Shown here piece after piece: positions 12,536 through 13,438 of a stretch of DNA of 19,733 bases (position 1 is the stretch's first letter; every line of letters starts with the position of its first letter). The position numbers and the translations under genes were made by a program. The notes under the pieces are model-generated. The model saw nothing but the letters and a program-made list of their open reading frames with translations, was not told the origin of the DNA and ran no database searches. Location: assembly GCF_003334765.1 (NCBI RefSeq), contig NZ_QOWT01000050.1; one strand, given 5' to 3'. The DNA comes from Escherichia coli. GTDB taxonomy: Bacteria; Pseudomonadota; Gammaproteobacteria; Enterobacterales; Enterobacteriaceae.

Positions 12536-12742
12536 ATGACCACCCCAGTTTCGCTGATGGATGACCAGATGGTCGATATGACGTTTATCACTCAGCTGAC
12601 CGGCCTGACCGATAAGTGGTTTTACAAGCTCATCAAGGATGGGGCCTTTCCGGCTCCCATCAAACTCGGCCGCAGCTCCCGCTGGCTGAAAAGTGAAGTG
12701 GAAGCCTGGCTGCAGGCGCGTATTGCACAGTCCCGTCCGTAA
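12536..12742 (+). CDS. alpA: AlpA/Vis-family phage-type transcriptional regulator or excisionase-like protein
   Basis: 68 aa; RBS GGAGAAG; ...ITQLTGLTDKWFYKLIKDGAFPAPIKLGRSSRWLKSEVEAWLQAR aligns by eye with E. coli AlpA (...IQKTGMARATIYDWL...FPKKRMLGVKSVGWIEAEIDEWLSQR). Confidence 0.75.
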   Translation: MTTPVSLMDDQMVDMTFITQLTGLTDKWFYKLIKDGAFPAPIKLGRSSRWLKSEVEAWLQARIAQSRP

Positions 12743-12835
12743 TTTTTAACCACTGGCCCTTCGCCCACAGCAGACGCAATCTCCGGCCTGCCGGCGGCAC
12801 TCTGCTGCCTGTTATCCCCCGTGAGGAATATGAAA

Positions 12836-13438
12836 ATGAAACCACAGTATCAGACCCGTTACGAGCTGCTCCACGAAAGCTACCAGAAATGGCTGACCGG
12901 CTTCACCCGGCACGCCGTATCCTGGGGCGTGTGTCATCCGAATATCCACTACTTCCATAATCTGACGCCCGGGTGGGTGTCATTCAATGGTGAAAAACCG
13001 AAGATTGCCATCGTACCCCGGAGTCTGCACCGGCTGATTTATGGCTCTGACAAACGGGCCACGCCGCCCCTGGATGATGATCTGGTGGTGAACTTATGCA
13101 CCAGCGAACATCTGCTGGTTCATCATCCGATGCTGGAAGGGATTCTGCTGTCTGAATGTGAACGTCTGAGGCAGCGTTCTCTGGCAAATAAACTGATCAG
13201 CCTCTTCCGTCAGTTTGGTGGCACGGAGTTGCGCCTCAAACTGGTCTGGCTTTGCTGGCTTGATTTAATGACCGGAAACAGCCTTGACGACTGGACGGAG
13301 AACCTGAAACGGAAATCAGAAAAAGAGCTGGGGGAATGGATCATCGACCGTCAGAAGCAGAACGCAGCACTGACGGATCTGATGGATCAGTACGTGCTCC
13401 TGGCATACCGCACAACGGTTGACGGTAACCGTAACTGA
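12836..13438 (+). CDS. Hypothetical protein, about 200 aa, immediately downstream of alpA
   Basis: ORF track 12821..13438 begins on GTG; start placed at ATG 12836 (MKPQYQTRYELL...) with GAGGAA 7 nt upstream. No recognisable motif. Same strand as alpA, 90 bp downstream. Confidence 0.55.
   Translation: MKPQYQTRYELLHESYQKWLTGFTRHAVSWGVCHPNIHYFHNLTPGWVSFNGEKPKIAIVPRSLHRLIYGSDKRATPPLDDDLVVNLCTSEHLLVHHPMLEGILLSECERLRQRSLANKLISLFRQFGGTELRLKLVWLCWLDLMTGNSLDDWTENLKRKSEKELGEWIIDRQKQNAALTDLMDQYVLLAYRTTVDGNRN

Follow-up and report, generated by a model that had tools for sequence, protein, structure and literature searches.

In Escherichia coli K-12, AlpA of the cryptic prophage CP4-57 is an activator of the integrase gene intA and the trigger of excision. 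Rox (SRL), Hef (HPI), VefA and VefB (VPI-2), SEN1998 (ROD21), and Vis (P4) are likewise small winged-helix proteins that promote integrase-mediated excision, and we liken them here to the AlpA of the locus treated below. To our knowledge, none of the AlpA-family RDFs Rox, Hef, VefA/VefB, SEN1998, and Vis has been described with a partner of the Aec62 type treated below. Several AlpA-family RDFs are encoded in mid-island or at the far end (PMC3014918, PMC8844411): the AlpA-family excision factors vefA and vefB of VPI-2 lie far from the integrase (PMC3014918), and SEN1998 of ROD21 is away from its integrase as well (PMC8844411). In the Pseudomonas tmRNA islands I23, I44, and I55, intY stands at one end, while a Gp2-like gene and alpA sit next to each other at the other end (PMC12595487). 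These islands resemble pheV-type islands in carrying RadC and defense-system cargo, but they belong to another genus and insertion site, and Aec62 is not reported there (PMC12595487).

The window examined here, a stretch of 19,733 nucleotides of E. coli DNA, had been singled out in a preliminary description because it appeared to hold an AlpA-family regulator and an unrecognized partner gene, but no integrase, between flanking chromosomal-type genes. The features that we recognize in it are as follows.

7130-7696 and 9345-9944, minus strand: inovirus-Gp2-type (YagK/YfjJ) genes, so named by PGAP.
8168-8593 and 8590-8979, minus strand: DUF7828 zinc-ribbon genes between the Gp2-type genes, named by PGAP.
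10176-10325, minus strand: truncated Hha/YmoA-family gene (NCBIfam PRK10945, E = 4.5e-21, profile positions 28 to 71 of 72).
11361-12152, plus strand: YagM-like gene, 263 aa, with a possible ribbon-helix-helix N terminus (weak RHH-type match, E = 0.0025).
12439-12535, plus strand: conserved, hairpin-rich leader of about 95 nt that starts with TTTTTAC and has four CCGG-core segments.
12536-12742, plus strand: alpA-like gene for a 68-aa winged-helix DNA-binding protein of the AlpA/Vis/Rox/Hef family (PF05930).
12743-12835, plus strand: alpA-aec62 spacer with a small conserved hairpin (UCCGN...N'CGGA), the conserved CUGCUGCCUGU, and the aec62 ribosome-binding site.
12836-13438, plus strand: aec62-family gene for an orphan protein of 200 aa; alternative starts are ATG at 12830 and GTG at 12821.
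13761-14347, no strand assigned: IS21-family scar, with an istB ("AAA ATPase") fragment at 13919-14053.
15202-15443, plus strand: C-terminal remnant (about 90 codons) of a 390-aa core gene of the X310 family (tblastn, E = 4e-28).
15901-19462, no strand assigned: cargo annotated as an MFS transporter, an alpha/beta hydrolase, and a LysR regulator.
19692-19733, plus strand: start of a YeeP/YfjP-type GTPase gene which, by annotation, opens a CP4-44-like module (Ag43, DUF932, antirestriction, RadC, CbeA/CbtA).

Sequence comparison with related genomes places the entire window in the interior of the E. coli pheV (tRNA-Phe) genomic island. The E. coli isolate F1022 is 100% identical to the window with synteny throughout, and about 20 further genomes are 99% identical along its full length. 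By the annotation of the matching genomes, the island runs from tRNA-Phe through the integrase, IS debris, and mal/aga/cit-type cargo to the window, and continues after it with a GTPase gene, Ag43, DUF932, antirestriction, RadC, CbeA/CbtA, and kps capsule genes. The core module of GTPase (YeeP/YfjP), DUF932, antirestriction, RadC, DUF987, and CbeA/CbtA genes thus lies just downstream of the window. The left-hand part of the window holds an MFS transporter, an amidohydrolase, and a GntR regulator. The flanking genes, previously read as chromosomal, are by the same annotation cargo of the one pheV island and not backbone. At more than 60 kb, this island is a large, IS-ridden member of the CP4-44/CP4-57-like islands that insert via a P4-type integrase. 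Islands of this kind carry capsule, adhesin, metabolic, and antiphage defense genes and are found in most E. coli genomes, often in several copies.

CP4-57 and the pheV island share a P4-type integrase at a tRNA or tmRNA gene, YfjJ (Gp2-type), the YfjP GTPase, DUF932, antirestriction, RadC, and a CbtA-type toxin-antitoxin pair. The two AlpA proteins fall in the same Pfam family but are only 25% identical. The K-12 alpA is 1.2 kb away from intA, and the gene after it is yfjI instead of aec62. Phage-inducible chromosomal islands (PICIs) and satellite P4 also combine an integrase with an AlpA/Vis regulator that heads an early operon. We considered both as identities for the window island and rejected them. 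For a PICI, no primase-replicase, packaging, or capsid-redirecting genes are annotated, the integrase and alpA are 14 to 39 kb apart, and the island is too large for an element type that measures about 10 to 15 kb. For satellite P4, neither the alpha primase-helicase nor sid/delta/psu is annotated, and a search of 50,697 phage records with Aec62 returned a single stray match, in a 3.6-kb fragment.

The integrase that the preliminary description missed is present beyond the window. In F1022, an intact P4-type tyrosine integrase of 420 aa adjoins tRNA-Phe (pheV) about 39 kb upstream of alpA, which puts it about 24 kb past the left window edge. The distance to alpA is 37 kb in ST70 and 14 kb in NRZ14408, and each of the three genomes inspected has a full-length integrase. 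It has an arm-type DNA-binding domain and stands beside a tRNA gene, as in other islands of the family. The window itself does lack a recombinase or relic of one, as had been claimed; tblastn with the pheV integrase gave noise only (best E = 0.64). Since the integrase is intact at tRNA-Phe, its absence from the window is an effect of where the window ends, and a 20-kb window that lacks an integrase is no evidence of an orphan regulator.

The pheV integrase is 67 to 72% identical to integrases of Buttiauxella and Photorhabdus elements that bear the alpA-aec62 cassette, compared to only 35% for K-12 IntA. These values indicate that it is of the type that normally travels with the cassette, and it shares a clade with the integrases that compact elements carry along with the cassette. 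The compact elements have the layout tRNA (selC or leuX, either of which the integrase adjoins), int, 6 to 9 kb of cargo, aec62, alpA, and a Gp2-type gene, with the last three reading toward the integrase. The cargo is type I restriction-modification, Dnd, or BREX. Beyond the cassette and divergent from it come X310 (300 to 390 aa) or a YagM-like gene and then the GTPase, DUF932, RadC, and CbeA/CbtA. Wherever a near-complete integrase was found within 10 kb, it faced aec62 in convergent orientation from 5.8 to 9.0 kb downstream. Thus, separation of the cassette from the integrase is normal for this island family, and the expectation that alpA should lie near its integrase does not describe the norm here, as even compact elements part the two by cargo. 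We also looked for CCGG-type motifs as possible AlpA sites near the att/integrase region, and none were enriched.

The assignment of the regulator to the AlpA family was borne out. The protein matches Pfam PF05930 (Phage_AlpA) with an E value of 3.7e-9 over model positions 2 to 51 of 51, it also matches HTH_17, and it matches PHROG 66, "excisionase and transcriptional regulator" (E = 9.6e-10); PADLOC gave weak HTH-type matches only. In the AlphaFold2 model, helices at residues 15 to 22 and 26 to 34, strands at 42 to 44 and 47 to 51, and a helix at 52 to 66 are predicted with pLDDT values of about 88 to 93. The size of the protein and this predicted helix-helix-strand-strand-helix arrangement are those of a winged-helix/excisionase-type member of the family. 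The gene has a ribosome-binding site (GGAG) 7 nt ahead of its ATG and a dN/dS of 0.09 to 0.16.

The partner gene begins 93 nt after the end of alpA. The preliminary description had it start at GTG 12821, which is probably too long, and PGAP places the start at ATG 12830; we favor ATG 12836 because of the homologues and the position of a GAGGA Shine-Dalgarno sequence. With about 200 homologues and a dN/dS of 0.09 to 0.44, aec62 is a real gene. The dN/dS values of alpA and aec62 are 0.1 to 0.4 even between paralogous E. coli copies, which points to purifying selection on both. The homology search proposed earlier for the 200-aa protein recovered a conserved family, which was searched for in two very large protein collections and found in Enterobacterales only. 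Its hosts include Escherichia, Salmonella, Klebsiella, Yersinia, Serratia, Hafnia, Pantoea, Providencia, Pectobacterium, and Photorhabdus. Relatives are 175 to 205 aa long, with identity down to about 28 to 30%; the window protein is 97% identical to the closest cluster. An alignment of 25 members has two invariant motifs, G-x-L-L-S-E-C-x-R-L (with [LI] at the fourth position in the family pattern) and L-C-W, and three invariant tryptophans. The window protein has the family's length, motifs, and tryptophans, as well as its place downstream of alpA. Aec62 of a selC-associated island (UniProt Q5K5T0) aligns with the window protein at 94% identity in Foldseek and shares its fold; "Aec62" is an ORF label only, and selC is also a site of compact cassette elements.

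As first described, the partner has no family match in the databases searched. Pfam gave none with the single sequence or with any of the 25 aligned members, and the family went unrecognized by NCBIfam, PHROGs, and PADLOC. The AlphaFold model (pLDDT 87.5, pTM 0.86) predicts a mostly helical protein with one beta-hairpin. Foldseek against AFDB50 returned family members only and no annotated relative, the best hit of the sequence profile in the PDB had an E value of 0.3, and hhalign gave probabilities below 1% against the neighboring X310 and YagM-like families. These searches lent no support to any specific activity. The absence of a PADLOC match led us to discard a known antiphage defense protein as a candidate. 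Some homologues are named "malate transporter" or "secretoglobin family protein"; no domain match backs either name, and we consider these labels on Aec62 homologues unsupported. A search of the literature on Aec62, the AlpA of pheV, and Rox of the she island found nothing usable.

We charted the positions of alpA, aec62, the integrase, and further island genes at 43 loci of various species; together with earlier loci, 48 were usable. In 42 of the 48, drawn from more than 20 genera, alpA immediately precedes aec62 on the same strand, 68 to 124 nt away. Only DUF7828 zinc-ribbon and/or Gp2-type genes intervene in four others, and the last two have a decayed alpA in one case and no alpA in the other. 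By this conserved order, alpA and aec62 form a tightly linked core module of this island family across Enterobacterales, and they are probably cotranscribed. Among complete E. coli genomes, 3,334 of 5,426 carry the cassette, in up to seven copies per genome, at pheV, aspV (CFT073), the cobU/CP4-44 position, and elsewhere; in cobU-linked islands the cassette is followed by yfjI (a DUF3987 gene). In other genera, the Gp2-type and zinc-ribbon set is in one operon with alpA and aec62, whereas in E. coli the pair is on the strand opposite to these genes (window positions 7130 to 9944). That the pair stays together despite its differing orientation to its neighbors argues that the two genes act as a unit. 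We also fused AlpA and Aec62 through a linker in an AlphaFold2 model, a crude test that gave a pTM of 0.61, about the value for two independent domains, and no sign of a complex.

Taken together, the alpA finding is real but largely ordinary: the usual cassette sits in an island of familiar type, whose intact integrase lies beyond the window. Interest remains in the conserved leader and in the orphan Aec62, whose linkage to alpA is strict throughout Enterobacterales. The reading that best explains the data jointly, to which we give a probability of about 70%, is that this is the core cassette of the pheV island, in which AlpA acts on a distant integrase, Aec62 is an accessory, and alpA is gated by its leader. 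AlpA would be the island's excision and regulatory factor, reaching the remote integrase and att sites in trans; by binding DNA, it would turn on integrase-mediated excision from afar, set its direction, or both. We infer this role from its characterized relatives: AlpA, Vis, Rox, Hef, and VefA stimulate excision or turn on expression of the integrase. Both the RDF activity and the pairing of AlpA with the pheV integrase are put forward by this analogy. Aec62 is most likely an accessory coexpressed with AlpA. It would be made together with AlpA and act after or alongside excision, and its constant company of Gp2-type genes, which encode rolling-circle-like initiators, and zinc-ribbon genes suggests a role in postexcision steps. 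Our best guess is that it would serve the Gp2-type replication/mobilization genes with which it shares an operon in other genera or else modulate AlpA.

The preliminary description suggested instead an immobilized remnant. For the island as a whole this may be right, as IS scars and a truncated core gene are present; the cassette itself is intact and its selection is purifying. In its fuller form, this reading says that the pheV island no longer excises and that the cassette is a decaying relic or has been domesticated. The interval from the integrase to alpA is rich in IS elements and pseudogenes, and the IS21 scar and truncated X310 follow just downstream of the cassette. The stretch from 13440 to 15900 was indeed poor in ORFs and free of an integrase, as first noted, and it is made up of the IS21 scar, conserved noncoding DNA, and the truncated gene; other E. 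coli islands contain this stretch in more complete form. X310 is intact in strain AVS0786, and about 950 bp are deleted in the window relative to the L011 locus. We had also considered a decayed yfjI here and dropped it; tblastn found no match, and the stretch holds the scar and the truncated X310 instead. YagM-like genes alternate with X310 beside the cassette in other genera.

The same reading is favored by the inversion of the cassette compared to the canonical operon, by the loss of the alpA start codon in ST70 (a 99%-identical relative), and by CP4-44-type copies linked to cobU that have no integrase at all. A second copy of the last 16 to 22 nt of tRNA-Phe was also not found in 39 kb of the L001 locus, but this stretch falls short of the distal end of the island, which reaches further. 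On the other hand, alpA and aec62 are intact in the window and constrained even among paralogous E. coli copies, the integrase is full length in each genome inspected, and the leader is conserved. We regard the immobilized remnant as possible but doubtful. The inverted cassette and truncated X310 do indicate that the pheV island may no longer use the cassette in the way compact elements do, and the island may well be sluggish or immobile.

A different account keeps the cassette active and makes it mainly a unit of transcriptional regulation instead of recombination. The pair would govern genes of the island or its cargo, with AlpA in the activator role known from phage-inducible chromosomal islands and Aec62 in that of a coregulator or sensor. 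The annotation of K-12 AlpA is that of a transcriptional activator, and AlpA is a putative activator of the integrase gene in other islands (PMC12595487). The cassette also sits at the boundary between conserved backbone and variable cargo, reading into the cargo, and it persists in islands that lack an integrase. Against this, Aec62 has no detectable DNA-binding or sensor domain, and the downstream cargo is unrelated between elements, which makes a shared target unlikely. Moreover, regulation and RDF activity are compatible in the AlpA family. We consider a mainly transcriptional unit unlikely and keep the core cassette acting on a distant integrase as the preferred reading.

The gating of alpA in this reading comes from the leader. 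It opens with an invariant TTTTTAC 86 to 99 nt before the alpA ATG in 38 distinct loci, and the block is conserved where flanking DNA is otherwise unalignable between genera. The fourth CCGG-core segment is the Shine-Dalgarno region, ACCGGAGAAU. When leaders were folded individually, those of most lineages formed one long nested hairpin that pairs the alpA Shine-Dalgarno sequence, with lineage-specific compensations (GGUA:UACC, GCUA:UAGC, and GUUGUUA:UAACAAC). In the window, the predicted partners of this pairing are positions 12447 to 12453 and 12523 to 12529. The window leader has a minimum free energy of -33 kcal/mol (z = -2.95). A covariance model of the leader (R1) placed it ahead of alpA at about 44 loci, distant subfamilies among them; at the K-12 CP4-57 locus, the model found no match. 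In the alignment guided by R1, which leans toward structure, 75% of cells were paired compared to 25 to 43% in slid controls, and 15 of 21 pairs had double changes, a count that shares this leaning. With a plain MAFFT alignment, RNAalifold returned one invariant 4-bp helix only. Columnwise covariation was weak for a simple switch between 1:2/3:4 and 2:3 pairing, and the CCGG cores barely vary. G-U pairs were not in excess over A-C mismatches (55 versus 48). Given modest covariation and equal G-U and A-C counts, an RNA structure is not distinguished from an element acting at the DNA level. Rfam had no match at gathering score anywhere in the window and only chance-level hits (E of about 7) in 12380 to 12860.

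On these predicted folds, the leader is a probable translational gate on alpA, in which the hairpin that pairs the ribosome-binding site would probably hold off translation. The main alternative is a role of the leader as DNA, as an operator or as an origin for a Gp2-type protein. The latter has been developed into a replication module, where the TTTTTAC hairpin element would be a nick site or single-strand origin for a Gp2-type rolling-circle initiator and Aec62 an origin-binding or loading factor. In most loci a Gp2-type gene is directly upstream or downstream of the cassette, and in the L006 locus its stop codon is about 8 nt before TTTTTAC. The T-rich motif beside the inverted repeats is invariant, and the leader has compensatory changes without the G-U excess noted above. 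But the Shine-Dalgarno sequence of alpA is always within the 3' arm of the hairpin, at a constant spacing to the ATG, and where alpA and Gp2 are separated (E. coli and Klebsiella-type loci) the element tracks alpA. Aec62 also has no similarity to known replication proteins. We judge the replication module improbable, and we retain the translational gate within the core-cassette reading.

A more far-reaching proposal is that leader, alpA, and aec62 make up a previously undescribed switch common to CP4-44/CP4-57-like islands throughout Enterobacterales, in which the leader would gate AlpA, AlpA would act at a distance, and Aec62, a protein of new fold, would be needed for excision, replication, or transfer. 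We offer this only tentatively. If true, the leader-alpA-aec62 switch would serve islands that carry defense and virulence genes. The cassette with its fixed partner and leader gives three defined parts for the study of a poorly understood excision switch.

The spacer between alpA and aec62 is a smaller element. RNAalifold predicted nothing for its hairpin, and in the window copy its stability does not exceed that of shuffled sequences (z = 0.09). The hairpin is conserved in other genera; the inner helix shows 91.5% pairing, and the pair that closes it is GC in 18 cases, CG in 12, AU in 1, and UA in 1.

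Upstream of alpA (12536-12742, plus strand) lies a conserved leader of about 95 nt, and the spacer between alpA and its orphan partner gene aec62 (12836-13438, plus strand) is also conserved. The two noncoding segments are as follows.

12439-12535: conserved leader upstream of alpA
12743-12835: alpA-aec62 spacer, a small hairpin followed by CUGCUGCCUGU

The leader was present 5' of alpA at about 44 loci from many genera. It carries an invariant TTTTTAC and four segments with a CCGG core, and the alpA Shine-Dalgarno sequence is predicted to be paired within a long hairpin. No Rfam family matched the leader, which may function either in the RNA or at the DNA level. 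An additional copy (8364-8461, 64 bits) was found in a Serratia liquefaciens metagenome-assembled genome (L059), about 500 bp upstream of an inovirus-Gp2-type gene. No ORF of at least 40 aa follows this extra copy, which may be left over from a duplication of alpA. In the spacer, the small hairpin (UCCGN...N'CGGA) is retained with a variable closing pair, and the CUGCUGCCUGU that follows is near-invariant. Both elements are kept across genera despite saturated synonymous sites; the stability of the hairpin in the window copy is not unusual (z = 0.09).

The genes around the cassette, formed by alpA and aec62, are the following.

7130-9944, minus strand: two inovirus-Gp2-type (YagK/YfjJ) genes around two DUF7828 zinc-ribbon genes
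10176-10325, minus strand: short Hha/YmoA-family gene, aligning with the Hha profile over its C-terminal two thirds only
11361-12152: YagM-like protein, 263 aa
13341-13541, minus strand: 66-aa ORF labeled hypothetical protein (WP_011076196.1), overlapping the aec62 3' end in antisense orientation

Because the Gp2-type/DUF7828 block lies on the strand opposite to alpA-aec62 here, while in other genera these genes share one operon with alpA and aec62, the E. coli cassette appears to be inverted relative to the block. In other genera, the position beside the alpA operon alternates between a YagM-like gene and an unrelated gene of X310, a family of 300- to 390-aa island core proteins. This might be the place where a repressor is expected, and the N terminus of the YagM-like protein resembles a ribbon-helix-helix DNA-binding motif, albeit by a weak NCBIfam match (E = 0.0025). 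Many E. coli islands keep the short Hha/YmoA gene at the same position, and it adjoins an AT-rich stretch (GC of 0.36 to 0.37 at 10500-11500). The 66-aa ORF matched no family and is probably a spurious call.

In the E. coli ST70 island, which is 99% identical, the ATG of alpA (L004 26536-26742) is replaced by a stop codon and the two codons after the start position are also altered. PGAP consequently places the start at an internal Met, which shortens the protein to 61 aa. These changes suggest that alpA is decaying in some lineages. Two divergent paralogues of Aec62 occur together in some elements or genomes. In Salmonella diarizonae (L027 13040-13621), one aec62 is directly 3' of alpA and the other is beyond the Gp2/zinc-ribbon block, while CFT073 has a 37%-identical paralogue (UniProt A0A0H2VD60).

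The left part of the window holds the following.

1-5719: island cargo and insertion sequence debris
3733-5352: intact ISEc38 transposase

This cargo comprises the 5' end of citC, an MFS transporter, an amidohydrolase, and a GntR regulator, and a Mu-transposase pseudogene lies within the same stretch.
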